Source: a virus
Lineage: Duplodnaviria > Caudoviricetes
Virus record (IMG/VR): IMGVR_UViG_3300044266_000149
Location: 1 to 40,315 of that record
Length of the DNA: 40,315 nt
Direction: 5' to 3' (one strand)
Shown here: piece by piece, positions 2,180 to 40,315 of the stretch
Position numbering within the stretch: position 1 is the first letter of the stretch
How the letters are laid out: every line of letters begins with the position of its first letter
Position numbers and translations under genes: made by a program
The notes under the pieces: model-generated
Seen by the model: only the letters and a program-made list of their open reading frames with translations
Told to the model about the DNA's origin: nothing
Databases searched by the model: none

Positions 2180-3094
2180 ATGGCAGCCCCAATGCGCAGT
2201 ACGGACTTCCGTAGTATTGTTGAGCCGATTCTCAACGAATGCTTCGATGGAGTCTATGACCAACGTAAAGACGAATGGTCACGTGTGTTCCGCGAGGAAC
2301 AAGGTATCCCACGTAACTACCACGAAGAACCCGTCCTCTACGGTTTCGGTGCAGCCCCCGTGTTGCCTGACGGCACCCCCGTCAGCTACCAACAAGGTGG
2401 CGTTCTGTTCCTCAAACGCTATGTCTACCAAGTGTTCGGCTTGGCGTTCGCCCTCACGAAAGTGTTGGTCGAGGACGGTGACCACATCCGTATCGGTCAG
2501 GTTTACGCCCGCCACTTGGCTCAATCGTTGATTGAAACCAAGGAAACTTTGGCAGCCAACGTTCTGAACCGCGCTTTCAACTCCAGCTACGCTGGTGGTG
2601 ACGGTGTGGCTTTGAACAGCAACGCTCACCCCATCGTTACTGGTACCGCCAGCAACTTGTTGAGCACCGCTGCTAACTTGTCGCAGACCTCGCTTGAGCA
2701 AATGCTCATCCAGATCCGTCAAGCAGTCGACAACAACGGTAAGAAGATCCGTTTGGTTCCCCGCCAGTTGGTGGTGGCACCAGGCAACGTCTTCCAAGCT
2801 GAAGTGTTGCTGAAGTCGGTTCTCCGCGCTGGTACAGCCAACAACGACATCAACCCTGTTAAGTCTATCGGCCTCTTGGACGAAGGCGCAGCAGTGTTGT
2901 CTCGTTTGACTAACGCCAACGCATGGTGGGTTCAGACCGACGCTCCTGAGGGCATGAAGCTCTTGATGCGTCGCGCTCTTGAGAAGACCATGGAAGGTGA
3001 CTTCGAAACTGACTCGATGCGCTACAAGGCCACCGAGCGTTACGACGTCGGCTTCACCGACTGGCGTGCAATGTACGGCACTCCTGGCGTCTAA
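2180..3094 (+). CDS. Major capsid protein (HK97 fold, Mu gpT-like)
   Basis: Strong SD AGGAGG; 304 aa; motifs GFGAAP..PDG..V.Y, GDGVAL.S.AHP, LVVAP, RYKATERYDVGFTDWRAMYGTPG; strongly biased codons. Confidence 0.88.
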   Translation: MAAPMRSTDFRSIVEPILNECFDGVYDQRKDEWSRVFREEQGIPRNYHEEPVLYGFGAAPVLPDGTPVSYQQGGVLFLKRYVYQVFGLAFALTKVLVEDGDHIRIGQVYARHLAQSLIETKETLAANVLNRAFNSSYAGGDGVALNSNAHPIVTGTASNLLSTAANLSQTSLEQMLIQIRQAVDNNGKKIRLVPRQLVVAPGNVFQAEVLLKSVLRAGTANNDINPVKSIGLLDEGAAVLSRLTNANAWWVQTDAPEGMKLLMRRALEKTMEGDFETDSMRYKATERYDVGFTDWRAMYGTPGV

Positions 3095-16209: not shown

Positions 16210-16845
16210 ATGACAACCGCAGCCGTAATGACCTATGACTCGCTGGTGGAAGACGTACAGTCGTACCTAGAGCGTAGTGACGCCGCGACTCTCGCGAAAA
16301 TCCCTACCTTTATCATGCTAGCTGAGCAGATTATTGCTGCTGAGCTCAAGTTTCTAGGTAACCTGACAGTCGCTCAAAGCAACTTTACCACGGGGCAGCC
16401 CGTCATAGACAAACCAGCTCGCTGGCGTAAGACGGTATCGATGAACGTAGTTGTAGCGGGGCAACGTGTTCCCGTTCTGCTACGTAAATACGAATATCTT
16501 CGCGAGTACTGGCCTGATGCTACAAAGACGGACATCCCCGCCTTTTACGCTGACTACGACTACACGCATTGGCTTGTAGCCCCAACACCTTCTTCAGCTA
16601 TGGAGTTTGAGGTCACTTACTATGAGCGTCCTCAACCCCTAGACTCTACGAACCAATCTAATTGGTTTACTCAGTATGCTCCACAGGCTCTTCTGTATGG
16701 GACGTTGCTACAAGCGATGCCTTTCTTGAAGAACGACGGGCGTATCCAGATGTGGCAACAACAATACGCAGCGATCATGGCCGTACTCAAAGAAGAGGAC
16801 GTAGCCCGCATCGCTGATCGTCAAGCTATCGCGGTGGATTCATGA
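16210..16845 (+). CDS. Head-tail adaptor/tail tubular protein A-like
   Basis: TYDSLVEDVQSYLER...IPTFIMLAE...APTP...YY.RP..L...NW....AP.ALLYGTL..A.PFLKND pattern. Confidence 0.75.
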   Translation: MTTAAVMTYDSLVEDVQSYLERSDAATLAKIPTFIMLAEQIIAAELKFLGNLTVAQSNFTTGQPVIDKPARWRKTVSMNVVVAGQRVPVLLRKYEYLREYWPDATKTDIPAFYADYDYTHWLVAPTPSSAMEFEVTYYERPQPLDSTNQSNWFTQYAPQALLYGTLLQAMPFLKNDGRIQMWQQQYAAIMAVLKEEDVARIADRQAIAVDS

Positions 16846-23900: not shown

Positions 23901-26900
23901 ACTTGACTGCGGAAGAAACTTCTCAGCTCAGAAACTACTTAAAGGCTGAAGCCAGTATCAGTAATAACGGAATCGCTTCTCCTCAATCTGTAGATAACGC
24001 CCTCCGCAATTATGAGACTGCTAAATACGTAGACCCCAACGCTAACATCATGGATTTCTTGGGGGCCAGTACTCGAGATAGCGGTATCGAGATGCAGTAC
24101 GTAGACAAGAAGCTTGATGAGTACCTCAGCAAGAATGACCCGTTCAAGTCAGCAGAGCAAAAGCAAGCCCTCACCCTAGAAGACAAAGCAATCATAGAAA
24201 ATACGATTTCTAACATCAAAGACACTATCTACACAGGTACAGTCAGCCAATTTGATGCTCAGAGCATGGTGAACCAAGCAGCATACAGATTCTCTGTAGC
24301 TCAAGACTTAAAAATCCGAAACTCAGATTGGGCTGATCTAGCCAAAGAAGATCCAGTGCGGATGCAAGAATATACTTCAGACTATATGGAGGGAAAGTAC
24401 ACTTTTAGCCAGTACGTAGACCACCTCACTTCTCAAGGCGTATCTGCAGAAAAATACTCAGCTGAGCAGGAATCTAAATTTCAGAACGCCTACATGAATG
24501 CGGCTCACCTAGACGCGAGTAAAGCTGAAGAGCTCGCTAAAGATTTTGCCGAAGGTAAGCTGAAAGATGTCACAGCGTTGGGTGAGCAGATTACGTATTT
24601 TGGTAATCGGCAGAACATGGAGAAAAGTTATCTTACGTCTCTAGAATCTGCTGGAGCTTCCGAAGATCAAATCCAAAAAGTAAAAGACTTATTCGGTTCA
24701 GAAAAAACAAATAGCGAGGTAGCTACCGAGTTTGGTAAGATCTATCAAGGTATCCTTAACCCAGTAGTACCAGAAACGCCTAAAACTCAAGAGCAACTCT
24801 GGACTGAGCAAGCCCAAAAAATGCTTGCTCCCTACCAAACGCTTCTTTCTAACACTCAGTATCGTGATGCTATCAACAGCTACGCTAAGACCGGAGATCT
24901 GGCTCTTGTCAATGAAGCGATCTCAGATGCAAAGAACAACAAACCTTTACCAGACAACGCATCCGCAGCTGATCCTACGTACGTTGCAGGTTATACCTCA
25001 GCTATGCAGTATATGCAGCAGAATCCGCTATCGTTATCAGACGAAGCGAAACGAAAACTCGCAGATGAAGTAGGCAATAAAGAGTTGTCTATGCCAGAGT
25101 TTACCGAGAAGTATCTAGATGAGGCCAATCGGTACAAGCTGGTGAATGCGTATGCGCCGCAACTGTTAGACCAAGGGTACTCTCCTGAGCAGATCAAAGC
25201 CTTTTCAGATAGCGTTCTCAACTCTGAAAAAACTCCTGCTGCAGCCGCGCAAGAGGCATATCAAACGATTGAGGGTTCAAAACCGCTGAACGCCCCGACA
25301 ATTACTTCCCCGACTCACACCGTCACAGACACCTCAGGCACGCCAGTTTCCACGCCTACTACACCAGCGGTCACTGCTCCTCAAGAGACATCTCAAAGTG
25401 CGACCTACAAAGCGCAGTATGACTGGGCCAATACGTACATTTCTCAATGGGGTTCAGCTATCCCCGAGTCGGTCAGAAACGAGCTCGCTGACAAGTACGC
25501 GAGGGGTGATATTCAGGCAGTCGGACAAGAGATGGTGGACCAGTCAAATCTGTACAGACAGGCCGAGTCTCTAGGTAACGCTCTCAAGGGTAGCGGAGCA
25601 ACTGATAAGCAAGTTGAGGATTTTAAAACTCAAGTTACATCAAGCCAAACTTTCAACAGCCAAGTTGTGGATGACTTGTTCAGACAGTACTACCAAGAGG
25701 CTCAAGCGAATGCAAAACAATCTACCACGACTCCTACAACCCCAAAAGAGTCTACAAGCGTCACAGCAAACGCAGACGGATCTCAAACTTCCGTCACTAC
25801 TCACTCTGACGGCACAACCACTACAGTTACCAGATATCCTGACGGCACAACAGTCACAGGAGCAGGAGGTACAGGGGGCACAGGGACATCAACTTCTGGA
25901 GCTGCAACAGGTACAAGTACAGGCGCTACCTCTGGGGCTGGCGCCAGTGGAACTTCTGGAACTGGCGCGGGTACAACCAACGCTGAGAACGGAACTAGTA
26001 CAGGTACAGGAGGCGGCGGCGGGGCCGGAGGTACAGGTACAGGGTCGGGTACAGGATTCGGCTCTGGAACAGGTACAGGTATCGGCATCGGAACAGGCGC
26101 AGGGAGCGGAGTCGGCGGGGGAACGAGCGACACCTCTACGTCCGGATCAGCTCCAACCGATACAACGACTTCTAGTACAACGACTACCCCGCCAGTAACT
26201 ACGGGCGGCGGCACCACGACTACGCCTACAGATACGACAACTTCTGGAGGTACTACATCGGAAACAAAACCGACAAGCCCTACCGCCACTACAAGCGGTT
26301 CAGGCGGGTCTGGAGGCTCTGGCACTGGTACAACTACCAAGCCTACAGGCGGGGTTCCCGTGGCTGGTACCCCTTCTGGGGTATCCATGGGGGATACAAG
26401 CTCTGGCGCTTGGAAAGCCCCCACACTGTTTGCTACAGGTTTGGTTAATACGTACGTACCTGAGGTAAAATTTGAATCACCTCTTGAAGCGGCAAACAAA
26501 GTCGAACTCCAAAAAGGAGCCATCGAAAGCGGCAATGAAGGAACTGATATGACAAACCTTGGACTTTCTCAACAAACTTCTCAACCAACCCAGAATGGGT
26601 ATTATAATTACGGTGTGGATAAGAGCCCTTTCGCTCTGTCAGCGTCGCCCTTCATGAACACTCCAAGTCAGAATGAAGTCCAGACGTTCAAGAGCGGCGG
26701 CCAGCCCAAATCAGCTCTCCAAGCCGCTATGAACGATGTCGAGCACAAAGGCTCTCATTATGTGCAAGGTGACGGTGGAGGTCAGGATGACCTGATTGAT
26801 GCTAAGCTGGCAGACGGTGAATACGTGTTTGATGCCGATATCGTGTCCGCGCTTGGAGACGGTTCAAATAAGGAGGGAGCCCGTAAGTTGGATGAGATGC

Positions 26901-26995
26901 GTGAAGCTATCCGCGCTCATAAGCGGTCGGCTCCAATCAACAAAATTCCTCCAATGGCTAAGTCCCCTCTGGAGTATCTGAAAGGACATAAGTAA
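20993..26995 (+). CDS. Giant internal virion/ejection protein (2000 aa)
   Basis: Hydrophobic Ala/Gly N-terminus, coiled coil, helical repeats, G/T low-complexity tract; C-terminal VQGDGGGQDD.I.A.L.DGEYVFDADIVSALGDGS..GA..L domain. Confidence 0.75.
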   Translation: MGDPVSLAVVALSYAGAETIGTAIIATALEDYVVDSVATAALSTAVGSAAISGTAVALQGGTANQVLKAAVINGVAAGAGSYVGNTVGNYVGGLTEVRAAPIIAKSVSTSVTVAAVKGTDIEKAALSGLVVGTIAAVNDLPSVKGLPDTVKNVMNNVVAAALTKQDIKTAAVAGLIQSTNILGTVINSNDTLKAAWANPDNKGLVTMAQNAVSYGLAAAIQGKDVNAAVTQSLYTTSAKLLGASIKGELNAYVKDVQDNYKNATKAQADYNDAATKQAAEYKTYNTYADKVNDYSTKLSELSRDYPSMYQQQSDLLNTIKNEERTITWYNNQMSGLKSDYDHQYNIIKGTVDEYNHYLSIYNNTGYPVQTRNDAAFILNSGGTTLHNGHDFQQIIQNAQFMIDSINAKAEQLHTSYAPVIDGYQKDTAQYNDLIKQLNTMSSTYESLSNDLAAYVDSNKAAAETALSNGRAYDGALASYKATLDTSVALMNSSASKLDEEVNSLQNVAALDFKKVIAEDELKTMQSTASAQTIADKTAEIRSLEAQSYIESMRSVSDDFKNIDFKDLEGKYASTSGMTLDQLASEVKIRTFDQVATPEEKQQAINVAAQYKAANGSLLPTETVQNYAIQQVMSDSWGATTVNPEAEQRRLEAGNQAYKDARAAGLNYDTAYAIRDEVLNRSLGDFTSSQRVITDVAPDILDAITSSANSVERLLSFDPIGTQFAAASSNTMSDAGAGWAMTKQERIQYYLENAAEVKGSGITFDSSTGLYRVDDESGGRSLFFDKDGNPTGQSILVTGTSDTPGGTTNEIASDFLTHVYANTKEGDGLSTKEEERYTYAQSVSQAAESANTKEAVAYLKSEKGSIPQDRLDDLIGKVQSGAISTGEAYIAFRDEVAAEYNRKTAANDPLVKSTYDQAYKYFSQAAGMQPGDAVIAAQGVAEGLSTNEALNLPKNLRNADNLADVFQKTQNLTAEETSQLRNYLKAEASISNNGIASPQSVDNALRNYETAKYVDPNANIMDFLGASTRDSGIEMQYVDKKLDEYLSKNDPFKSAEQKQALTLEDKAIIENTISNIKDTIYTGTVSQFDAQSMVNQAAYRFSVAQDLKIRNSDWADLAKEDPVRMQEYTSDYMEGKYTFSQYVDHLTSQGVSAEKYSAEQESKFQNAYMNAAHLDASKAEELAKDFAEGKLKDVTALGEQITYFGNRQNMEKSYLTSLESAGASEDQIQKVKDLFGSEKTNSEVATEFGKIYQGILNPVVPETPKTQEQLWTEQAQKMLAPYQTLLSNTQYRDAINSYAKTGDLALVNEAISDAKNNKPLPDNASAADPTYVAGYTSAMQYMQQNPLSLSDEAKRKLADEVGNKELSMPEFTEKYLDEANRYKLVNAYAPQLLDQGYSPEQIKAFSDSVLNSEKTPAAAAQEAYQTIEGSKPLNAPTITSPTHTVTDTSGTPVSTPTTPAVTAPQETSQSATYKAQYDWANTYISQWGSAIPESVRNELADKYARGDIQAVGQEMVDQSNLYRQAESLGNALKGSGATDKQVEDFKTQVTSSQTFNSQVVDDLFRQYYQEAQANAKQSTTTPTTPKESTSVTANADGSQTSVTTHSDGTTTTVTRYPDGTTVTGAGGTGGTGTSTSGAATGTSTGATSGAGASGTSGTGAGTTNAENGTSTGTGGGGGAGGTGTGSGTGFGSGTGTGIGIGTGAGSGVGGGTSDTSTSGSAPTDTTTSSTTTTPPVTTGGGTTTTPTDTTTSGGTTSETKPTSPTATTSGSGGSGGSGTGTTTKPTGGVPVAGTPSGVSMGDTSSGAWKAPTLFATGLVNTYVPEVKFESPLEAANKVELQKGAIESGNEGTDMTNLGLSQQTSQPTQNGYYNYGVDKSPFALSASPFMNTPSQNEVQTFKSGGQPKSALQAAMNDVEHKGSHYVQGDGGGQDDLIDAKLADGEYVFDADIVSALGDGSNKEGARKLDEMREAIRAHKRSAPINKIPPMAKSPLEYLKGHK

Positions 26996-28026
26996 TGGCT
27001 TCATTGACTCAAGGGTCTCCACTACCCGATGTAAATACGACGACCACGCAGACAACGACTGCTCCGGATTACTACACCAGTTATCTGAATGACGTTGCCA
27101 AGGCGGGGCAGACCGCGCTTTCGACAGACCCCTCTAAGCTGGTTGCCGGTTTTAGCGGTTTACAACAACAGGGTATCAACGCAGTAACCCCAGCGGCTAC
27201 ATCATATCAGCCAGGATTGTCGGCAGCTGAGCAAACTGCTTCTACAGTTGCTGGGGGTCTCAACCCGCAGAATATTCAAGCTCTGCTGAACCCCTACACC
27301 CAGAACGTAGTCGATGAGATGGGTCGTGTCCAACAGCAGAACATTCAGCGTAATGTTTTGCCTGGCCTCAAAGCCGCATTCGCAGGTACAGGGGGTATGG
27401 GATCCACTCGCTTTGCTAATGCAACTGGTCAAACTCTAGCTGATATGGAGGCAAACTTGCTCGGCCAGCAGACTGGAGCATTACAGAAAGGCTACAGCGA
27501 TGCGACTACCGCCGCGCTGCAGAATCTGTCATTGCAAAATCAGGCAGCTACAACGCAGGGTAACCTCGCTGCGCAAGAGCAAAACCTAGGATTGACTGGA
27601 GCTCAAGCAGAGATCAACGCTGGCGCGATGGAGCAAGCGCAAGAGCAAGCTAAGATTGACGCAGCTTTGAAGAACGCCACAAACGCAGCATCTTTGATGC
27701 GAGGCTACACCGTACCTACATCGACCACTCAGAAGTACACAGGCCCAATGCCTGGTGCCTACAGCGCATCGCCTTTGCAGCAAGCCGCAGGGCTGGCATC
27801 GTTGTTCGCTTCCGGCGCGGGCGGTACATCCGCAGCTGCTGGTGTAGGCAACGCGATCTCGTCGCTTGGTAACTACGTATCTGGGGCTTTGACTCCAACC
27901 GCAAGCACTGTATCGTTTGCCGGTACCAACGCAGATGGAACCAACGTCTACTATGACTCCAAGACAGGTAATTACATGGACTCTAGCGGTAACAATGTCC
28001 CAATCGCTGGCGGTGAAGGAGAATAA
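26995..28026 (+). CDS. Putative DNA-transfer/pilot (ejection) protein
   Basis: Q/A/G-rich; VAGFSGLQQQG, NPY.QNVVD and G.G.MGS.R motifs typical of podoviral ejection proteins. Confidence 0.7.
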   Translation: MASLTQGSPLPDVNTTTTQTTTAPDYYTSYLNDVAKAGQTALSTDPSKLVAGFSGLQQQGINAVTPAATSYQPGLSAAEQTASTVAGGLNPQNIQALLNPYTQNVVDEMGRVQQQNIQRNVLPGLKAAFAGTGGMGSTRFANATGQTLADMEANLLGQQTGALQKGYSDATTAALQNLSLQNQAATTQGNLAAQEQNLGLTGAQAEINAGAMEQAQEQAKIDAALKNATNAASLMRGYTVPTSTTQKYTGPMPGAYSASPLQQAAGLASLFASGAGGTSAAAGVGNAISSLGNYVSGALTPTASTVSFAGTNADGTNVYYDSKTGNYMDSSGNNVPIAGGEGE

Positions 28027-28029
28027 CCC

Positions 28030-29787
28030 ATGACGACTTCAGCCTCTGCATCTCCACTCAAAGCCTCAGGAGCCTTAGAGCCTGAGTTTTTCGGGGCCGG
28101 AGAAGAGTCCGATTACGCTCAGAAATACCGTGGGGCAAAAGAAGCTGAACAGAAATTGATGAACCTGCTTGAGCAGCGCAATCAGTCTCGCCTCAGCCCC
28201 TCTATGCTCGCCTTGGCTGGTGAGTTACTGGATCCTGGTCGTACAGGCTCTTTCGGTGAAGCCCTCGGTCGCGGAGCGAAAGCTTACGCAGGTATGCAAG
28301 GTGAAGAAGACCGCCAACGTCGTGAAGGCGCGATGGCTGAGCTCCAGCTTCGAAACATGCAACTTGAGAACGCTCAGGGTCAGCAGTTTGCCAACATGGC
28401 CAAGCCATTTGTGCAGGGAATGCTAGGTACAGGCGCTGGCCCAACTCCAGCCGCCCCCTCGGCTCTACCGCCTCAACCTTCGGTAGCCAAAGCGGTACCA
28501 GGAGTCGCTGGCTCAGCCCCTACATCGGTACCTACACCAGAACTCCCAGCATCCCGAACTGAGCCAGGACAGCCGCCCACTATCATGATCGGCGGTCGCC
28601 CCGTAAACCCTCAAGTGATCGCCGCGATGAAGATGATTCCCTCCATGAAGGGTATCGCCGACTCGATGGAGTACGCATATGAACAGGCGCTTAAAGAGCG
28701 TAAGTTCTATCAAGAGGGTATCAAAGTCCAGCCTGACTACATCGTTGATACGAACCAACTGGATGAGCAGGGCCGCCCCAGAGTCACACCGATCGTGAAA
28801 GCGGGCGAGGCCGACGTCGAGATTCGTTTCCCCGAGCTCGGCGGTAAAAAGTTCTGGGGTTCCAAAGAGGATCTCATGGAAGTTCGTGACGCCCGCGCAA
28901 AAGGTGACATGAGTCGTATTCAGACCGTGATCAACCGTCTACAGTACGGCGCTCAGGGTTCTCCCGCAGCGGCAGGCAAACCTCCAGCAGGAGGCGCAGC
29001 TCCAGCAGCCGTAGCTCAAGGCGCGGCCCCAGATATTCAATCTGAGGCTGCGGCAAAGCTTCGTGAAGATAAGATTGCAACGACTCAAGCTGAGAATGAA
29101 GTAAAAGCTACAAACGACGTGATGAACAATGAGAGCTCCAATCGTGAGACCGTTTTCACCTCAAGTCGTATCATCAAACTGGCCAGCGAGAAACCTCAGC
29201 TTTTCGGTTTGCTGAAGAACCCAACTATCGGCGGCGCTCTGTCCAACTTCATCAAGGAGCGCGCAGCTACAGGTGAAACGAACATCACCAAAGAAGCAGT
29301 TGAGAACTTCATGCGTCAATCGAAGTTTGACACCTCAAAACAAGACATGGCCGACGTGGCCCGTATGTCTAGCGATTTGGCCAAACTGCACTTCCAGTAT
29401 CGTCGCACGCTCTTGCAAGGCCAAGGTCAGGTTTCTGACCGTGAAGACGCCGGTATCACTAAGATCCAAGGTACTACCTCTGACCCCGCCGAGTTTTTGA
29501 TCGGTATGGCTCAGTTGGTGGGCCGTCGTTCTCAGTTTGACGTCGATGTCGCAAACGGTCTACGCAAGTATCGTAACCAGTTCGGCCGGAACAAGACGCT
29601 TGAAGATTACAAATCGGACGATAAGTCAACCTACGGTCAGCTGCTTCGCGGTTATGAAGGCTGGTTGACAAAAACATATGATCTACCCCCAGGACTGACG
29701 CCTGAAACGAAACCTGCAGCTCAAGCTCTCACGCAGAGCGCGATCAAAGCTGAAATTGAGCGTCGCAAGCAAGCGAAAAAGGAATAA
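28030..29787 (+). CDS. Putative internal virion/ejection protein
   Basis: 585 aa; L.PGRTGSFGE.LG N-terminal motif; GQGQVSDRE C-terminal motif; Pro-rich linkers. Confidence 0.65.
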   Translation: MTTSASASPLKASGALEPEFFGAGEESDYAQKYRGAKEAEQKLMNLLEQRNQSRLSPSMLALAGELLDPGRTGSFGEALGRGAKAYAGMQGEEDRQRREGAMAELQLRNMQLENAQGQQFANMAKPFVQGMLGTGAGPTPAAPSALPPQPSVAKAVPGVAGSAPTSVPTPELPASRTEPGQPPTIMIGGRPVNPQVIAAMKMIPSMKGIADSMEYAYEQALKERKFYQEGIKVQPDYIVDTNQLDEQGRPRVTPIVKAGEADVEIRFPELGGKKFWGSKEDLMEVRDARAKGDMSRIQTVINRLQYGAQGSPAAAGKPPAGGAAPAAVAQGAAPDIQSEAAAKLREDKIATTQAENEVKATNDVMNNESSNRETVFTSSRIIKLASEKPQLFGLLKNPTIGGALSNFIKERAATGETNITKEAVENFMRQSKFDTSKQDMADVARMSSDLAKLHFQYRRTLLQGQGQVSDREDAGITKIQGTTSDPAEFLIGMAQLVGRRSQFDVDVANGLRKYRNQFGRNKTLEDYKSDDKSTYGQLLRGYEGWLTKTYDLPPGLTPETKPAAQALTQSAIKAEIERRKQAKKE

Positions 29788-29790
29788 GCC

Positions 29791-31332
29791 ATGGATATGT
29801 CAAAACTGCTCAAGCAGCTGGATGACAAACAGCTAGAAATCGCGATGAAAGTCGCGGCCGAAGCTGAGGCTCAAGGGGTGAACCCTGACCATGTACTGCC
29901 TCTAGCATTCGCAGAAAGCAGTTTTAATCCGAAAGTCCCCAACTCTAGCGCGGGGGCTATCGGGGTCATGCAGCTGATGCCTAAGACCGCGAAAGGTCTC
30001 AAAGTAGATCCTCACAATCTAGACGAGAATATTCGCGGGGGCGTGACATATTTCAAAGAGTTGATGGGTCGTAAAGACATCAACGGAGATCTGAACAAAG
30101 CCTACATTGCGTACAACGCAGGACCAAACACGCCCTACATCACTTCAGGGAAGATCGAAGATATCCCCAGTGAAAGCCTCGGGTATCTTGACAAGATCTT
30201 GAGCCTGTCGGGTAATGGAGCTGAGTCCAGCCCTATGCGCCCCTCGCCTCGGCCTTCGGCAGCGGCCCCTCAGGCATCGTTAGAGCCGAATGAGCAAGTA
30301 GTTGAGCCTCCAGCTCCTACACCCACCCCAACGGCTGCAAACCCTGAAAATGTAGATGCGGGACAATTTGACTTTGATTACGAAAAGTTCAAGAAGTCTC
30401 AAGAAACTGCTCAAGCCGCCGAGCCGTATCATTTTGATCCTCTTGGAGATGTGATCGCGGGCGGGGCTGGCGCTACTGCGGGCGGTAGCCTCGGACTTGC
30501 GTACTCTACAGGTAAAGGTATGAACGCGCTGGCGCATGTACCGGCAGAGCTGAAGAGCGCACTCACAGAAGCTGCGAAAGCGGCAACACCCCCACCTCCA
30601 CCCCCTCCAAGCACCCCTACCCCCTCGGGTAGTCCTGCAGGGGTTAAGAACTGGGCCGCGTCCCAAGGCTATTCAGACCGCGGAGCGAAAACTTACAGCC
30701 AAGCTCATCAGTTTGAAACGGGCACTCGCCAAGGGGCGGGTATCCGTAACCCAACTACAGGTGAAGTAATCAAACCTACGTTCCGTGTTGCGAAGCCCCC
30801 CGTGTACGAGGCTCCAGCAGCGGCTGCCCCCGTAGTTGAGGCTGCCCCAGCAGTTGAAGCTGCTCCTGGCGCTCTGCAGAAAGCGGGCATGGCCGCCAAG
30901 ACGATCGCTGGACTCCCGATGGTTAGAGGTGCTCTGGGCGGTCTTGGGGTCGGTATGGGCGCGGCTGAAACATACAATCGTATGCAGCAAGGCGACAAGC
31001 TGGGAGCTACGTTGGCCGGTATCTCTACTGCAGGTAGCGCAGCGTCTATGGTGCCAGGACTTCAAATTCCTGGTGCTGCGGTAGGTATCGGCGGTATGGG
31101 AGCGCTGGCGCTTGCAGACTACGTTCGGAACAAACAGGCCGCACCTGATCAACCTGCTCAACCTGCTCAACCGAGCACCATCCAAGAAAAAGAGGCTGCG
31201 CTTCGTCAGATGCGGCAAGCCTCTCAGCAACAGGCGCAACAGCGTCCTGGTCGTGAAGTGTCTGGTAAGTTGGTTCGCGCGTTAGATGTGCAGATGCAAA
31301 ACTTCGTGAATCAACCAGTCCAGCAACCCTAA
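29791..31332 (+). CDS. Virion-associated lytic transglycosylase (SLT domain) ejection protein
   Basis: AESSFNP (catalytic Glu), GAIGVMQLMP, NIRGGVTY and AYNAG motifs; C-terminal Gly-rich hydrophobic segments. Confidence 0.88.
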   Translation: MDMSKLLKQLDDKQLEIAMKVAAEAEAQGVNPDHVLPLAFAESSFNPKVPNSSAGAIGVMQLMPKTAKGLKVDPHNLDENIRGGVTYFKELMGRKDINGDLNKAYIAYNAGPNTPYITSGKIEDIPSESLGYLDKILSLSGNGAESSPMRPSPRPSAAAPQASLEPNEQVVEPPAPTPTPTAANPENVDAGQFDFDYEKFKKSQETAQAAEPYHFDPLGDVIAGGAGATAGGSLGLAYSTGKGMNALAHVPAELKSALTEAAKAATPPPPPPPSTPTPSGSPAGVKNWAASQGYSDRGAKTYSQAHQFETGTRQGAGIRNPTTGEVIKPTFRVAKPPVYEAPAAAAPVVEAAPAVEAAPGALQKAGMAAKTIAGLPMVRGALGGLGVGMGAAETYNRMQQGDKLGATLAGISTAGSAASMVPGLQIPGAAVGIGGMGALALADYVRNKQAAPDQPAQPAQPSTIQEKEAALRQMRQASQQQAQQRPGREVSGKLVRALDVQMQNFVNQPVQQP

Positions 31333-31671: not shown

Positions 31672-32115
31672 TTATCCTTGGTTGACGTAAGATTTAGTCG
31701 CTTCGCCTTCATCGACAGAGTCTTTGGCGACTTGCACAATTCCGGCGGCGGCGTGTTCCTCGACGAGCAGCAAGTAGCGGCGCAAGTCGCGGATGTCGTC
31801 AATTATACCCTCAGGGCGGCGGTCGTGAGCGATAGCCTCAAAGATGTCGTAGTTGTGTTTTTTGACTTGGTTCTCAAGTCGATCCCACTTCCGAGCGAGC
31901 ATCATGAATGCGCCCACCCCGCCGCGATTACGCCAGCTGGTTCCGTAGCTTTCTTGAGCCTTGATTAGCCCCGCGATATCTGCGGCGCAAAGCCCGTTGA
32001 GGCCAGCTTCAAGCTTCGTACGTACGCCGTAGGGCGTGAGCGGGCTTTGGTGGTTAAGAGTTTGGGGGGCTTGAGGACCGCAGCCTGTGCAGCCCACGTG
32101 TTTATCTTCGCGCAT
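31672..32115 (-). CDS. MazG-like/Nmad1 (DUF1599-like) all-alpha nucleotide pyrophosphatase candidate
   Basis: K...YG.SW..RG..G.F..L.RKWDRL...EG..D...DL..YLLL pattern; adjacent to an HD hydrolase. Confidence 0.6.
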   Translation of the reverse strand: MREDKHVGCTGCGPQAPQTLNHQSPLTPYGVRTKLEAGLNGLCAADIAGLIKAQESYGTSWRNRGGVGAFMMLARKWDRLENQVKKHNYDIFEAIAHDRRPEGIIDDIRDLRRYLLLVEEHAAAGIVQVAKDSVDEGEATKSYVNQG

Positions 32116-32620
32116 CGAGTGCCAACCTTTCTGTGATAAGTTCGTCTAACAGTTCCAACCCTGCTTGGTGTGGGGTTAGCCCACGCAGGTACAATACACC
32201 ACGCTCAAAGACTTCTGAGATGGTTCTATTACCCATCTGGAGTTCACCCAGACAAGTGTAGAGCAAATCAAGCATATCTGCCCATTTTAGGATCAGATAC
32301 TCATCACCCGTGAGCTCAGGATGATTTATGTGGTGAGCTTTCAGCTTGCGGTGCTCTAATTCGTCTGAGGCCTTCTTCAAGAACTCAGATTCCCACTTCG
32401 CCGTGGCGGGGATGTCGCCCGTCCACTGCTCAGCTGTGTCGTGGATCAACGCAGCGTGAAGCAGGGGCGAGCTGATAGACATACCGCTCATAGCCATGAT
32501 GATCGCGATCACGTTTGCAGTATGCTCGCCTACGGTCTCATAGCGATGCATACGGCGCGTGTGCCAGCGCGTGACGGAGTTACCCGCACGGATCGTCTTG
32601 ATGATGCTATGCTGGATCAT
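32102..32620 (-). CDS. HD-domain deoxynucleotide hydrolase (YfbR/DatZ-like)
   Basis: V.RWH...ETVGEH...ALIHDTAE..TGDIP..K...KWADMLD motifs. Confidence 0.85.
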   Translation of the reverse strand: MIQHSIIKTIRAGNSVTRWHTRRMHRYETVGEHTANVIAIIMAMSGMSISSPLLHAALIHDTAEQWTGDIPATAKWESEFLKKASDELEHRKLKAHHINHPELTGDEYLILKWADMLDLLYTCLGELQMGNRTISEVFERGVLYLRGLTPHQAGLELLDELITERLALDARR

Positions 32621-35843: not shown

Positions 35844-36140
35844 TTAAAATTTTAATGGGATAGCGTCGTATGATAGTTTGTTCTTGTCCCAACGTAGAAC
35901 ATTACAAACATCATTTCGCTCAGAGGCCACAGTTACGCAGATAGCGCAAAGGGCGTAGTCACCAGCCATCAAGATGTAGTCATCGTCTTGCATCTTAGAC
36001 AAGACACGACGAGCGTGCTCAATGGCGGCTTGGGGGCTGAAGTTACGTCCGATAGAGGAGAAAACCTCTTTCACTTCGCCGAATTCTTCTGCTGCCGAGT
36101 AATCTCGACGGCGGTCAGTCTGTACAATCCATACGGTCAT
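35844..36140 (-). CDS. Small alpha/beta hypothetical protein
   Basis: 98 aa; ATGA-coupled to the polymerase stop; DYILMAGD...LRWDK....Y. Confidence 0.7.
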   Translation of the reverse strand: MTVWIVQTDRRRDYSAAEEFGEVKEVFSSIGRNFSPQAAIEHARRVLSKMQDDDYILMAGDYALCAICVTVASERNDVCNVLRWDKNKLSYDAIPLKF

Positions 36141-37936
36141 TTGATATCTCCATAGACCTTACCGAACTTGACTTCAGCGCTCACTGGCAACGAAGGCCAC
36201 CAGCGGGGCGGGGTCTTCATCACCTCTAAGATGTAGTCACGGGCGGCGGGGCCTTCTTCCTCAGGAACCACTGCTACAAGTTCATCGTGAACGGTTAGAG
36301 CAACGGGGTAAGTTTCGTTTACAATAAGCAGCTGCTCCATCACTACGTGGCGGGCTACAGCTTGGATGATGTTCTCGGTGACGAGGCCGCCGTACACCCC
36401 TGAGCGACCCTCACCTCGAGACATATAAGACCAACGACGCTCAGAAGAACTGTAACGCAAATCAGGATACATCAGCGGGAAACCGACAGGTAGCTTGATC
36501 TCGTTCTGTAGCGTGTAGACGTCAAGGCTATCAGAGAGCCGTATAGACTGCCCGTTGAAGATCGACTGCAAGGCGCGGTCGCACGTGTCCCAGAACTTGA
36601 CGATCTTGTCGTTTTTCTGACGGTAGGCTTTGATCGCTCGCTGACACATATCCATGGGGCGGGGCTTACCCTGAGCGCGCAAGAATTCGAAGAACGTGTT
36701 CGCGGACATACCGTAACCTGCACCCAACACCGTCACTTTACCCAACCAGCGCTCATCCTCGTCAGCCTTTGTGATTTCGCGGCTGTAAATGAAAGACGCC
36801 ATATCGCAGTATGGATCTTTACCCTGACGAAACACCTCAACTAGATCCTCTTGCCCTGCAGCAGTAGCGAGAGCGCGAGCCTCAATCTGGGAGCTATCGC
36901 CTACGACTAGGACATGACCAGGAGGAGCGATGAGGCCTTTACGCAGTTTAGAGCCGCGAGTCAGGTTCTGCAGGTTGATACCCCCACTACCGCTGAATCG
37001 TCCTGTGTGAGCGCCGTAGTACAAGAGCGGCACAGGAAGCGGGCCAGTCTTACCGATGGCGCTGAGGCGGCGGGCGCGGCTTTCCTCAATCGTTGACTTC
37101 AGTTTCAAGCGAGCTGAAACTACGGTTTGAACGCGCGGATCCTCATGCTCTAGTAGATCAGTCAGCCCTTTGTCGTCCTTGGCAAACGCATAGGTAGCCT
37201 TGCCGGTGCGCTCGCTCATTTTCATCGGCGGCGTGACACCTAGACGCTCAAGAGCCTCGGCGAACTTTGGATTCGACATGATGACATCCATCGTGATACC
37301 TGCCTCAGCGAGCATTTTCTCACGATTCAGCCCGAGGTCAATCACGTACTGATCTAGCATGTCGTGGTCGATGTGGATACGAGGCTGCGTGACCGCGCGA
37401 ATAGACCATTGCAAGAGCAAGAATTCGAATCGAGAGCACTTGTTGATCAAGAGTTTGTACGCAGCGTGGCAAAGGTCTACGTCATGTTCGCAGTACTCAC
37501 CTAGGATGTTTCGTTCAAAACTCTGTAAGTCGGCCAAACGCTTCCCCTTGGATACGGCTAGACCGTTGAGTTTTGTACCAAGGCCGAGGGCCTCAGCTAC
37601 AGAGTTCAGACTGTACGAACGTAGACGCAGTTGAGCCCGAGCCAAACCGACGGTATCAGTCCACTGCTCAGGGTGCCAGTTGTAGCGATGCCCGCAGATA
37701 GCCCCGTCAAACTGAGAATTGTGAGCGATAGCCCGAACCTTCTGCCCGTAGAACTTGAAAGCCTTTGTAACGTCACCACCCCACGCAAGGACTGTAGGCT
37801 CATCGTTCATCTTGAACCCGCAGCACAATGTCTCAAATCGATCATCACGGATGTACTCCGTGGAGGTCATCTTTGAAAGCGAGTAATCTTTCGGATCGTA
37901 GAACGTTTCAAAGTCAAGAGTTAGAGTATCAATCAT
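36137..37936 (-). CDS. polA: Family A DNA polymerase with 3'-5' exonuclease, no 5'-3' exonuclease
   Basis: ExoI LDFET, ExoII AHNSQFD, ExoIII YCEHD; HTGRFSG...NLQN; motif A DSSQIEAR; motif B R.LGKVTVLGAGYG; motif C VHDE. Confidence 0.93.
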   Translation of the reverse strand: MIDTLTLDFETFYDPKDYSLSKMTSTEYIRDDRFETLCCGFKMNDEPTVLAWGGDVTKAFKFYGQKVRAIAHNSQFDGAICGHRYNWHPEQWTDTVGLARAQLRLRSYSLNSVAEALGLGTKLNGLAVSKGKRLADLQSFERNILGEYCEHDVDLCHAAYKLLINKCSRFEFLLLQWSIRAVTQPRIHIDHDMLDQYVIDLGLNREKMLAEAGITMDVIMSNPKFAEALERLGVTPPMKMSERTGKATYAFAKDDKGLTDLLEHEDPRVQTVVSARLKLKSTIEESRARRLSAIGKTGPLPVPLLYYGAHTGRFSGSGGINLQNLTRGSKLRKGLIAPPGHVLVVGDSSQIEARALATAAGQEDLVEVFRQGKDPYCDMASFIYSREITKADEDERWLGKVTVLGAGYGMSANTFFEFLRAQGKPRPMDMCQRAIKAYRQKNDKIVKFWDTCDRALQSIFNGQSIRLSDSLDVYTLQNEIKLPVGFPLMYPDLRYSSSERRWSYMSRGEGRSGVYGGLVTENIIQAVARHVVMEQLLIVNETYPVALTVHDELVAVVPEEEGPAARDYILEVMKTPPRWWPSLPVSAEVKFGKVYGDIK

Positions 37937-38243
37937 GTAGGATGTCTACTTTCTTGAGCACACCTGTTGAGCCGTCAAAGGTAGCGCGTATATTTGCCCC
38001 GACAATCGTAGCTCTACAGTCACCATCACGTAGGGCGTAGTAAAACTGATAGTCTGGCGTTGGTGTAGGTTTGACGCGATACCTCATATCAAAGTTCCAG
38101 CTCGGTTGATTGTTTATACAGTCTACCCAGCGGTGCTCTCGTGTTCTTTCGTCATAGAACTGAATCGTTGCACCGTCAGCCCACGCCTTGATAGTCGCGG
38201 CGTGAGGATGGGGACGCTTGGAAGAGTTTCCAGTAGTCATCAT
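37929..38243 (-). CDS. Conserved phage hypothetical protein
   Basis: PH.HA..IKAWADGA.IQ...W.D....PSW....YRVKP pattern. Confidence 0.7.
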   Translation of the reverse strand: MMTTGNSSKRPHPHAATIKAWADGATIQFYDERTREHRWVDCINNQPSWNFDMRYRVKPTPTPDYQFYYALRDGDCRATIVGANIRATFDGSTGVLKKVDILHD

Positions 38244-39217
38244 TGTTCCTTCTCAGCCAACCAGATACGGCAAGCTTCACGCCAGTCTGTAGCCTTGATG
38301 TCGTTGATATGCTTCAGACCGTCTCGGTTGCGTTTGTGCTGCCACCAAACCAAGCTGATCGGTTGAACAACGTCTTGGAAGTAAGGAGTGCGGTACAGGC
38401 GCTCGTCTTGAGGATCAAGCATGAAGTCTTGCAAGTCTTTTTCCCAGTCCTCAGGTGAGCAGCCCGAAAACATCGGGTAGGGCTTCGTTTGCAAGTCGGC
38501 GTACTCGGTGTCGTAGTAATCCAGAGGCAAGTACGAGGTGTTCTTGACCTTGTCCCAAACAGGGATCTCAGTGTAAACGTGCAGAGAATCCGAAACCTGC
38601 GTATAAGGGCCGACCTCATATCCGCAGCGACCAGCTACATACTCTTGAAGCATACTGAAATGTACAACGTTCGCCCCAAGCTTACCGTACAGCAGATCGT
38701 TAGAGCGGCAGCATACGGTCATGAACAGCTTATTGTCTCGCACTTTCCAGTAGATATGCGTATTGCAGGGGTGATCCAACTTCTTACCACCGAGGTCTAG
38801 ATCAGCGTCCCACATAGTAGTGACGACGCGGCGGTCGTTGGGGTTCGCGCGGAGAAGCTTGATCGCGTATTCGATCTGGTCCTCTTTGTGATGGCGCAGA
38901 CGCCAACCGTAGGCCCCCCAGAACGTATCACCGTCATCACTGTACTGCTTCATCTGAGAGTTGAAGTAGTCCAAGAACTCAACGTCACGGTAGCCGCCGA
39001 TAATCCAGAGGCCTTCCATACTGTGGAAAAACGGGTTACACATGCGGTCTTTGTTGAACAAGACGCGCTCCATCGGCTTGGAGTAGGTAGTAGCTACAGG
39101 CTCATTGAATTCGATGACGGGGCCGTTCCGTGAGTTACGTACGATGCCGTCTTTCCTGATAGCGTTGATCTCGAGCGGGAAAGCCTGATTGACGTTGGTT
39201 ACATTGAATGAAAGCAT
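38240..39217 (-). CDS. Thymidylate-synthase-family protein, probable dUMP hydroxymethylase
   Basis: SRNG, NPFF...E.LW, YSDDG....GAYG.R, RR.V..MWD, catalytic PCN, RSND..YG..GAN..HFS.LQE and SLHVY; adjacent to an aGPT-Pplase1 gene. Confidence 0.85.
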   Translation of the reverse strand: MLSFNVTNVNQAFPLEINAIRKDGIVRNSRNGPVIEFNEPVATTYSKPMERVLFNKDRMCNPFFHSMEGLWIIGGYRDVEFLDYFNSQMKQYSDDGDTFWGAYGWRLRHHKEDQIEYAIKLLRANPNDRRVVTTMWDADLDLGGKKLDHPCNTHIYWKVRDNKLFMTVCCRSNDLLYGKLGANVVHFSMLQEYVAGRCGYEVGPYTQVSDSLHVYTEIPVWDKVKNTSYLPLDYYDTEYADLQTKPYPMFSGCSPEDWEKDLQDFMLDPQDERLYRTPYFQDVVQPISLVWWQHKRNRDGLKHINDIKATDWREACRIWLAEKEQ

Positions 39218-39226
39218 TTGAGTTCC

Positions 39227-40138
39227 TTAGAATCTAGTTTCTGGGGTATACTTGGAGCGAACTTGCCCGCCGTTGATCAAACGGCAGTACTTGTCAAATT
39301 CGCAGAAGGTATTTTGGATGTCATGCAACGTGAACTTACTCACGTCCATGTACTTACTCAGCTCATTCCTGCAAGCGATGAGTTCTGAGTTGAACTGAGC
39401 TTGCTTGATGGGCTTGTCTAAGCCGCGCCCGAACAGACGGTTCAAACCTCTTGTAGAACCAGGACCGATGGGAGCGAATGTGTACAGGTCAGGAGCATGG
39501 CAAAGTAAGTGAGTGTAAGTCCAGTCAGCTACAACCTGCCCCGCCATGAACGTACCGAAATTGAACATACCCTTGAACAGGCCCATAGCTTCTTCTACAG
39601 TGCGGTACTCAGGTTTACGCTGGAAGAATGCATTGAACTTATCGCGATGGAACCACGCATTTTTGAGCGTGGAGTTCGCTATCCAATCACCCTTTGTACG
39701 CCCTTCAGGTAAAGTGCGGGCGGTGATGAGATAAGCCCCCGTCCAAGCCTTTTCACCGGATTGAACGCGGTGATCAATTTCAGCCCCTAGAGCGTCAAAC
39801 CAGTCCCCGTGCAACGTATCTTGCTCCCAAGCGTCATGCTGCAGCATCAGGTCAAGGGTTGGAGGCCAGTTGATCCAGCGGGCAACGATCGGCATGAACC
39901 AAAGTAGCGAGTAATCTCTGTACGGGCCGTACCAGTTATCGATGAGCCATCTAGATACGCGATCATCAGCGCGGCGCATGTTGCAGAACTTGTAGGTGTT
40001 TAGGATGTCATCCTCGCTCCAAGGGGCGGGAGCGCCAGCCTCTTTCTCTGTACGGATATGCTCACGCTCCAGTACGAAGTATACATACCGGTTACGCAGC
40101 TCAGGTATAGGCATACCTACTTGGTTTGGCTCAGTCAT
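39227..40138 (-). CDS. aGPT-Pplase1 family (alpha-glutamyl/putrescinyl-thymine pyrophosphorylase clade 1; 5-hmdU DNA kinase-associated helical domain)
   Basis: F..ERE.I...K..G...PWS.D.IL..YKFCN.RR.DDRVS.W, TGAY.I, G.FMAGQVVAD, GPGS.RGLNRL and DIQN..CEFDKY motifs. Confidence 0.85.
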   Translation of the reverse strand: MTEPNQVGMPIPELRNRYVYFVLEREHIRTEKEAGAPAPWSEDDILNTYKFCNMRRADDRVSRWLIDNWYGPYRDYSLLWFMPIVARWINWPPTLDLMLQHDAWEQDTLHGDWFDALGAEIDHRVQSGEKAWTGAYLITARTLPEGRTKGDWIANSTLKNAWFHRDKFNAFFQRKPEYRTVEEAMGLFKGMFNFGTFMAGQVVADWTYTHLLCHAPDLYTFAPIGPGSTRGLNRLFGRGLDKPIKQAQFNSELIACRNELSKYMDVSKFTLHDIQNTFCEFDKYCRLINGGQVRSKYTPETRF

Positions 40139-40272
40139 GCTAGGCGATCCGTCTTGAAAGCTTCATCGACGAGAAGCGAGAATGTATACAGATCTACCTT
40201 AGACAGATCAAACAGGTTTTCTGTCGCAGTAGTCCAGTACCAGAGGCGACGGCGTTCATTCAGATTTTTCAT
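40135..40272 (-). CDS. 45-aa hypothetical protein (not in ORF track)
   Basis: SD AAGGAG, ATG at 40272; MKNLNERRRLWYWTTATENLFDLSKVDLYTFSLLVDEAFKTDRLA; stop overlaps the next ATG (ATGA). Confidence 0.65.
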   Translation of the reverse strand: MKNLNERRRLWYWTTATENLFDLSKVDLYTFSLLVDEAFKTDRLA

Positions 40273-40315
40273 GGCCAAGCTCCTTCAAGATGATTTGTAC
40301 AGCTTCTTCAGAGGT
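40256..40315 (-). CDS. C-terminal fragment of upstream gene (truncated by window)
   Basis: Open frame TSEEAVQIILKELGHEKSE* from the window edge. Confidence 0.4.
   Translation of the reverse strand, partial: TSEEAVQIILKELGHEKSE

Follow-up and report, generated by a model that had tools for sequence, protein, structure and literature searches.

The virus contig IMGVR_UViG_3300044266_000149, a stretch of 40,315 nucleotides analyzed here in its entirety and called the window below, carries a virion arm on the plus strand and a replication arm on the minus strand, with the two arms facing each other. Near the contig end, a thymidylate synthase (TS)-like open reading frame (ORF) and an aGPT-Pplase1 ORF lie 9 nt apart, both on the minus strand, and the final 60 nt encode TSEEAVQIILKELGHEKSE and a stop codon, the end of a kinase ORF upstream of Pplase1. 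With moderate confidence, these three elements are interpreted as the downstream part of an operon for thymidine hypermodification, in which a Pplase2 transferase would attach an amine that is probably not among the donors tested to date. The system probably belongs to the kind of pathway described for phages PhiW-14 and M6, which acts on 5-hydroxymethyl-2′-deoxyuridine (5-hmdU).

The TS-like protein contains Cys151, Asp148 (in DHPC), Arg171, Asp174 (in RSND), and Asn183 (in GANVVHFS). Published criteria (PMC13326640) assign diagnostic meaning to the equivalent positions of the Escherichia coli enzyme: N177 indicates dUMP as substrate, an acidic residue at L143, which lets water in, indicates hydroxymethylation, D169N indicates dCMP hydroxylases, and C146 is the catalytic Cys. 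The window protein has the dUMP hydroxymethylase residue at every one of these sites (C146 to Cys151, N177 to Asn183, L143 to Asp148, D169 to Asp174). Canonical ThyA proteins instead have a bulky hydrophobic residue at the position of Asp148, and in an alignment of 74 proteins Leu occurs there only in the two ThyA references. An earlier, sequence-only reading of this DNA had relied on the Asn in GAN..HFS as its marker. That residue does align with Asn of Bacillus subtilis ThyA and opposite Asp of CMP hydroxymethylase (PDB 5b6d), but Asn alone is also present in ThyA and cannot exclude it, so the assignment draws on Asp148 and on phylogeny. The protein falls in a 24-row clade (support 100) within a 71-row group (95 in the Shimodaira–Hasegawa-like approximate likelihood ratio test, SH-aLRT) that includes M6 gp58, a SPO1-like enzyme, and a ViI-like enzyme, with the two ThyA proteins and T4 gp42 outside; a 16-row subclade (100) holding the window protein contains all eight loci that encode the orphan protein discussed below. 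Its top cultured matches are in YuA/M6-like phages (42–43% identity). The protein is accordingly read as a putative dUMP hydroxymethylase, an identity that the sequence-only reading had proposed and that the diagnostic residues and the tree now support.

The adjacent protein matches PF18723 over residues 15–287 (132 bits against a cut-off of 25), is 34% identical to M6 gp55 (E 7e-54), and has its top cultured matches in YuA/M6-like phages (33–36% identity). ORFs and profile matches agree with the pairing of TS-family and aGPT-Pplase1 genes described earlier, and the pair does precede a family A DNA polymerase, albeit with a 104-residue ORF (37929–38243) in between. The grouping of aGPT-Pplase1 with 5-hmdU DNA kinase did not survive: PF18723 is the only match, 39227–40138 contains no P-loop kinase domain, and the kinases are separate upstream genes. 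A single-sequence model of Pplase1 gave no confident fold (predicted local distance difference test, pLDDT, 35.6), and comparison with PDB sequences returned only non-significant matches. The pair by itself leaves the pathway undecided, because in M6 the gp54 kinase and the clade 2 protein gp51 are enough for transfer without gp55 (PMC8989533), and because a set of more distantly related loci (L028–L038, L047) places Pplase1 beside an Asn-type TS with no kinase or transferase match. Pplase1 is best described as a putative accessory to the modification pathway. By eye, the latter loci also hold glycosyltransferase-like, methyltransferase-like, FkbM-like, or radical-SAM-like ORFs (SAM, S-adenosylmethionine), and they probably represent other 5-hmdU pathways.

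What decides the pathway is the kinase remnant, together with gene order in relatives. A scan of viral contigs yielded 60 loci, 23 of them at 73–79% TS identity and syntenic with the window through the polymerase (71–78% identical), Sak4, Cas4-like, and HD genes. In a search among the fetched loci, the remnant matches the ends of kinase ORFs in 18 of them (best E 1e-6). Upstream of Pplase1, the close loci encode a kinase, K2 (19 of the 19 reaching that far), then a second kinase, K1 (16 of 16), a Pplase2 (PF18724) transferase (14 of 14), and, in 8 of 13, a 250-residue orphan protein with a methyltransferase fold, which is missing in L019, L022, L024, L025, and L026. K2 matches PF18748 in L006, L018, and L026, and the relatives' kinases are whole, with P-loops. 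The closest Pplase1 relative with genomic context, L089 (67% identity), carries the orphan, the transferase, a DHH phosphoesterase, K1, and K2. A conserved 170-residue gene (phrog_624; e.g., L018:5502-6020) directly precedes the cassette in every one of the 12 loci extending that far, L089 among them. The kinase gene that had been expected beyond position 40315 is thus attested by its own remnant inside the window, missed at first. The prediction of tailoring genes in the same direction fared less evenly: pyridoxal phosphate (PLP), radical-SAM, and glycosyltransferase genes were not found in close relatives, whereas the methyltransferase-fold gene is there. Queries with the PLP, radical-SAM, and Nmad5 proteins of M6 and with PaMx11-type FAD and acetyltransferase proteins had no tblastn match in the 23 loci, a weak screen, since a divergent PLP-like gene in a related genome, G005, escaped it. 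In two relatives that are ∼90% complete, G001 and G002, every enzyme-sized ORF listed in the cassette has an assignment, with part of the ORFs Pfam-scanned.

For the phage of the window itself, a 5666-nt contig (depth 30.4) of X1, a public sequencing run that contains the window and may be its source, continues 2269 nt past position 40315, long enough for the remainder of K2 plus K1 and the transferase in the case of collinear genomes, and pieces of a contig of equal depth fall on K1 and on the Pplase2 catalytic motif of L006. The closest TS found (P0093, 84%), a Pplase2 (P0105), and an orphan homologue (P0020) are each listed on a contig of 20416 nt. A metagenome scan with Pplase1 found 13 distant loci (26–38%) and no extension of the window contig. 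A transferase gene beyond 40315, as the sequence-only reading had foreseen, is very probably present in this genome, given its occurrence in relatives and the depth-matched pieces; the orphan gene is likely present too, at a clearly lower level of confidence.

In homologous systems, the kinase yields 5-phosphomethyl-dU (5-PmdU), and Pplase2 then swaps the phosphate for a nucleophile (PMC8989533). The donor is set by positions 227, 230, and 238, which are Gly/His/Asp in diamine enzymes; the glycine enzyme has Lys248/Tyr257, two residue swaps suffice to switch the donor, and further donors are expected (PMC13458397). A Trp binds the glycine carboxyl in the glycine enzyme (PMC11472151). The relatives' Pplase2 keeps D24, E96, K159, E243, T244, C247, and D262 (M6 numbering) and has Tyr at M6 position 155, where the glycine type has Trp. 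In a pocket survey of 40 homologues, 39 of which have the ETxxC motif, positions 227/238/243 are Met/Lys/Asp in 31 of the 39; four others combine Gly227 and Gln230 without Asp238, and four combine Met227 with another residue at 238. Neither the Lys/Tyr set of the glycine enzyme nor the Gly227/His230/Asp238 set of the diamine enzymes occurs in any of the 39. Because Met/Lys stands in place of Lys/Tyr or Gly/Asp, the donor is probably one outside those tested, with glycine, serine, and simple diamines all unlikely, in keeping with the earlier suggestion that the final base may be new. The Lys at the site of the diamine enzymes' Asp238 prompts the guess of a charge-swapped pocket for an amine with a distal acid, and the donor might then be an acid-bearing amine such as β-alanine, γ-aminobutyric acid (GABA), Asp, Glu, or taurine. 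The Gly227/Gln230 pocket occurs within the same transferase clade (L015, L016; P0113, P0126, P0129, P0131), which suggests a donor switch among close relatives. The cluster logos in Fig. S6B of PMC13458397 may already cover this clade. Maynard_142 and Maynard_144 were tried as ViI-type transferases and rejected in the survey. At E 1e-3, a search with the L006 transferase returned no record from a Salmonella ackermannvirus, and the motif search did not map the pocket of the Kuttervirus comparator.

The orphan, whose 28 close homologues carry no Pfam domain, has no match in cultured phages, PHROGs, or PDB sequences; a profile search extends the family to 274 representatives. An AlphaFold model built on a 26-row alignment (pLDDT 89.8) matches class I SAM methyltransferases in structure searches (Foldseek, VIA), with Trm1 on top (Z 15.5, root-mean-square deviation 4.4, 220 aligned), and a conserved EVFCGFG resembles a motif I loop. 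The protein is accordingly modeled as having a class I SAM methyltransferase fold, with methyl transfer as a prediction. Its gene reaches into the start of Pplase2 or lies directly against it in nine of nine fetched loci that carry the orphan, and in P0233 (609 residues, the sole long member among the 150 matches listed), the orphan domain is fused to a PF18724 domain (E 6.5e-12). Adjacency and fusion point to a functional link between the two proteins; no substrate is named thereby. P0233 lies on a 111,642-nt contig and has a different Pplase2 pocket again, with Asp after the catalytic Cys.

The strongest competing explanation leaves the pathway as proposed and gives the methyltransferase-fold protein another target: 5-hmdU directly, a different base, or a non-DNA substrate. 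The structure matches come from many classes of methyltransferase, their Z values nearly tied, and the presence of this optional gene is not linked to pocket type: 5 of 13 loci lack it, among them L019, which shares the Met/Ala/Lys pocket, and L016 has it alongside a Gly/Gln/Thr pocket. The coupling to Pplase2 by position and fusion speaks against it, as does an alignment that contains neither (D/N/S)PP(Y/F) nor PC, the motifs of ordinary DNA methyltransferases. This alternative is a serious one, although methylation of the Pplase2 product is preferred to it.

Less likely, but far from negligible, is a version of the same pathway in which, as in PhiW-14 and 15599, the transferase is a diamine enzyme, the base being putrescinylthymidine or a closely similar diamine analogue. 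The relatives' Pplase2 is nearest to PhiW-14 gp109 (best cultured match, E 2e-36) and P26218 gp14, and its clade joins the diamine enzymes gp109 and nACB2, with P26218, at support 99, as a subclade of its own (98) and apart from the glycine enzymes. Tyr at M6 155 and Asp243 are common to the diamine type, and putrescinylthymidine in PhiW-14 requires no tailoring enzyme (PMC8989533). Identity to gp109 is only 30–33%, however. The Pplase2 tree came from a quick search with long branches, and Maynard_144 and the G005 row were left out of a second tree as long branches. Gly227, His230, and Asp238 are all replaced, and in the 15599 enzyme G227K, H230A, and D238K each reduce diamine transfer by 75–85% (PMC13458397). 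These residues favor a donor other than a diamine.

It is improbable that the phage halts at 5-hmdU or 5-phosphomethyl-dU or that its upstream cassette differs from that of its relatives. The capsid lineage does swap cassettes: G005 has PLP and ViI-type genes, and no cassette was found in MW202545 or in the examined 35 kb of Caulobacter phage RW. Moreover, the window Pplase1 is just 46–55% identical to most relatives' copies, compared with 73–79% for TS. Against this stand the match of the remnant to K2 of the close clade, the run-contig pieces on Pplase2 and K1, and the gene content of L089, in which Pplase1 is closest. Least credible by far is the reading of the TS-like protein as a conventional thymidylate synthase that provides dTMP, for although Asn183 also occurs in ThyA and family libraries label the match "thymidylate synthase," the Asp three residues before the catalytic Cys (Leu in both ThyA references), the grouping with hydroxymethylases, and the neighboring Pplase1 and kinase genes all speak against it.

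Besides the tree position and the patchy orphan distribution given above, several points weigh against a hypermodification operon with a new donor. The 23 close loci form about seven near-identical groups and are not independent samples. Pplase2 and the methyltransferase are placed in this genome from relatives: the sole tie to the run contig is its equal depth, the pieces being 41 nt long at ≥80% likeness in a sample where other relatives occur at similar depth, and the link among P0093, P0105, and P0020 depends on equal contig size only. The TS tree came from a quick search, has long branches, and represents ThyA by just two references (phi3T ThyA and RB43 Td), a dCMP deaminase homologue was found neither in the window nor in the 23 close loci, and the 15599 D238K variant retained about 20% of its diamine activity (PMC13458397).

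Table 1. Annotated features of the window, with the supporting matches.
Feature	Coordinates	Strand	Basis or remark
Major capsid protein (MCP)	2180..3094	+	93% to G001, 88% to G005, 86% to G002
SU10-type adaptor	16210..16845	+	PF24175 E 1.7e-25
Nozzle-like tail protein, 744 aa	18086..20320	+	4-row alignment profile vs PDB 8zkk "nozzle gp16," E 2.7e-9
Ejection-protein block, three genes, last with SLT domain	26995..31332	+	phrog_4287 DNA ejection E 1.7e-11; PF01464 E 1.1e-16
Nmad1/DUF1599-like small helical protein	31672..32115	-	50% over 105 columns to Pam3_54 "nucleotide modification"
HD-domain nucleotide hydrolase, M6 gp59 homologue	32102..32620	-	PF12917 E 2.3e-15
Family A DNA polymerase	36137..37936	-	PF00476 E 4e-27
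104-aa ORF	37929..38243	-	Overlaps both neighbors; 3 weak PHROG matches of unknown function
Predicted dUMP hydroxymethylase (TS-like), 325 aa	38240..39217	-	PF00303 E 8.2e-19; phrog_5131 E 6.7e-101
aGPT-Pplase1 (HMUDK_hel) helical protein, 303 aa	39227..40138	-	PF18723 E 2.6e-38; M6 gp55 homologue
45-aa ORF	40135..40272	-	Overlaps K2 stop and Pplase1 start
5-hmdU DNA kinase (K2) C terminus, 19 residues + stop	40256..40315	-	Truncated by contig end

Elsewhere in the replication arm (Table 1), the HD-domain protein also matches the phrog_7076 dATP triphosphohydrolase (E 3.6e-14) and is 33% identical to M6 gp59, making it a candidate remover of dT nucleotides. Feature and structure leads connect the Nmad1-like protein to PF07659, below the naming threshold, a lead only toward a candidate dNTP pyrophosphatase. 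In G001, a DUF3310 gene (L072:17607-17912) replaces it at the same position, which suggests interchangeable roles. Motif B of the polymerase (RWLGKVTVLGAGYG) carries Leu at the site equivalent to residue 762 of E. coli PolI. The 45-residue ORF has a single clear homologue (L005, 55% over 49 columns) and no PHROG match. A promoter and terminator scan performed no better than on shuffled sequence.

The virion arm supports assignment of the phage to the short-tailed (podovirus) type, here from genes alone. Besides the nozzle-like and ejection proteins already named in the sequence-only reading, an adaptor is found, and among 45 window proteins scanned against Pfam and PHROGs none matched tail tube, sheath, or tape-measure families. 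Portal and terminase genes were seen only in the relatives G002 and G005. The capsid protein is 77% identical to that of phage RW and 42% to that of HTVC023P, which resembles podoviruses by transmission electron microscopy (bioRxiv 2019.12.14.876532); MW202545 (MCP 88%) is labeled Siphoviridae sp. in its record. A 2000-residue protein (20993–26995), Thr/Gly-rich near residues 1590–1800, lies between the nozzle and ejection genes, and its homologues in G001, G002, and G005 have 516–1171 residues. G002 encodes, between its terminase and portal genes, a 581-residue protein with an ART-PolyVal ADP-ribosyltransferase domain (L076:16892-18637). The cassette carried by this capsid lineage varies, being of the ViI type in G005 and absent from MW202545 and the examined part of RW. 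In the complete genome of G005, the run L080:11771-19719 holds a PLP-like gene, a ViI/Kuttervirus-type transferase, one kinase, Pplase1, TS, HD, and DUF3310. The G005 polymerase has weak family B matches, and cassette and polymerase appear to have been swapped together.

Among the nearest characterized parallels are Delftia phage PhiW-14 (gp37 kinase, gp72 Pplase1, gp109 putrescine transferase) and Acinetobacter phage SH-Ab 15599 (dapT; PMC13458397), which likewise combine hydroxymethylase, kinase, Pplase1, and Pplase2 genes, with no PLP, radical-SAM, or flavin step, and a Pplase2 in the same major branch as that of the window's relatives. Their Gly/His/Asp pocket is Met/Ala-Ser-Gly/Lys in the relatives, which also differ in their two adjacent kinases and optional methyltransferase-fold gene, and the 157-kb myovirus genome of PhiW-14 contrasts with one compact operon on a short-tail-type genome of 51–59 kb. 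The Pseudomonas phages M6/YuA and PaMx11, whose bases are 5-(2-aminoethyl)-2′-deoxyuridine (5-NedU) and 5-acetylaminomethyl-2′-deoxyuridine (5-AcNmdU; PMC8989533), have the closest cultured hydroxymethylase and Pplase1, the same order of transferase, kinase, Pplase1, and hydroxymethylase, and a shared HD homologue. They are siphoviruses, and their glycine-binding Lys248/Tyr257/Trp155 is absent from the relatives' Pplase2, just as homologues of their PLP, radical-SAM, FAD, and acetyltransferase proteins are from the close loci. Salmonella ViI, which makes 5-(2-aminoethoxy)methyl-2′-deoxyuridine (5-NeOmdU), has two paralogous 5-hmdU DNA kinases, as do the relatives, but its PLP decarboxylase was not found in them, and a ViI-type transferase sits instead in G005.

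In the freshwater Rhodoferax phage P26218, which has a short tail and is a podovirus by electron microscopy (PMC4657236), Pplase2 (PF18724 E 5.7e-48), a kinase-like gene, an Asn-type TS, HD, and DUF3310 form one run. The short-tailed context, which had been thought possibly new, is therefore not new at the gene level. P26218 differs in having one kinase, no Pplase1 or methyltransferase match, and a Val/Gln/Tyr/Arg pocket, and its capsid is not among the matches of the window MCP. This run (L068:9773-13265) is an unrecognized set of thymidine-modification genes in a cultured podovirus, and DNA modification is unmentioned in the passages of the P26218 paper available (PMC4657236). Both its kinase-like gp15 and M6 gp54 carry the annotation "terminase small subunit," the phrog_800 label. 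The term "podovir" is absent from the main text of PMC5889632 and PMC8989533, and a literature search, mostly without subscription papers, found neither a paper on a podovirus with hypermodified thymidine nor one on a methyltransferase tailoring a Pplase2 adduct.

In the pathway proposed, the phage would make 5-hmdUMP with its dUMP hydroxymethylase and replicate its DNA with 5-hmdU, while the HD and Nmad1-like proteins would reduce the supply of dTTP. The two kinases would phosphorylate 5-hmdU in DNA, Pplase2, predicted just past the contig end, would attach an amine in place of the phosphate, and the methyltransferase-fold protein, coupled to Pplase2 in most of the nearest relatives, would methylate the adduct. 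The earlier proposal that T is replaced by 5-hmdU and modified after replication is supported by the hydroxymethylase and kinase remnant, but not sufficiently by the gene pair on which it had been based. Restriction-site avoidance was not counted as evidence of modification, because of the M6 control and P26218 values given below and because hosts differ. The window has far fewer six-base palindromes lacking T than expected (31 seen against 77), and those with T are not depleted (290/322 and 172/207), as in G001 and G002. T-containing sites are lower in the cassette-free MW202545 and 35 kb of RW (0.43–0.68); the M6 control stretch strongly avoids them (0.39, 0.06), and P26218 stands at about 0.67.

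The final base is likely to be new to DNA. A fuller scheme is put forward only tentatively, as it has less than an even chance of being right: the short-tailed clade would make an undescribed base, to which a charge-swapped Pplase2 adds an acid-bearing amine, a new methyltransferase family contributes methylation of the adduct, and two kinases widen the range of sequence contexts. The short tail is by itself a modest point. The clade offers a compact, clonable gene set whose transferase pocket differs from both the glycine and the diamine type, and with it a methyltransferase family backed by fusion evidence. If the scheme is true, it would provide a new natural base, a new DNA-tailoring enzyme, and a methylation step absent from characterized thymidine-hypermodification pathways. 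A capsid lineage whose members carry this cassette, a ViI-type cassette, or none is a natural comparison for the gain and swap of base modification.

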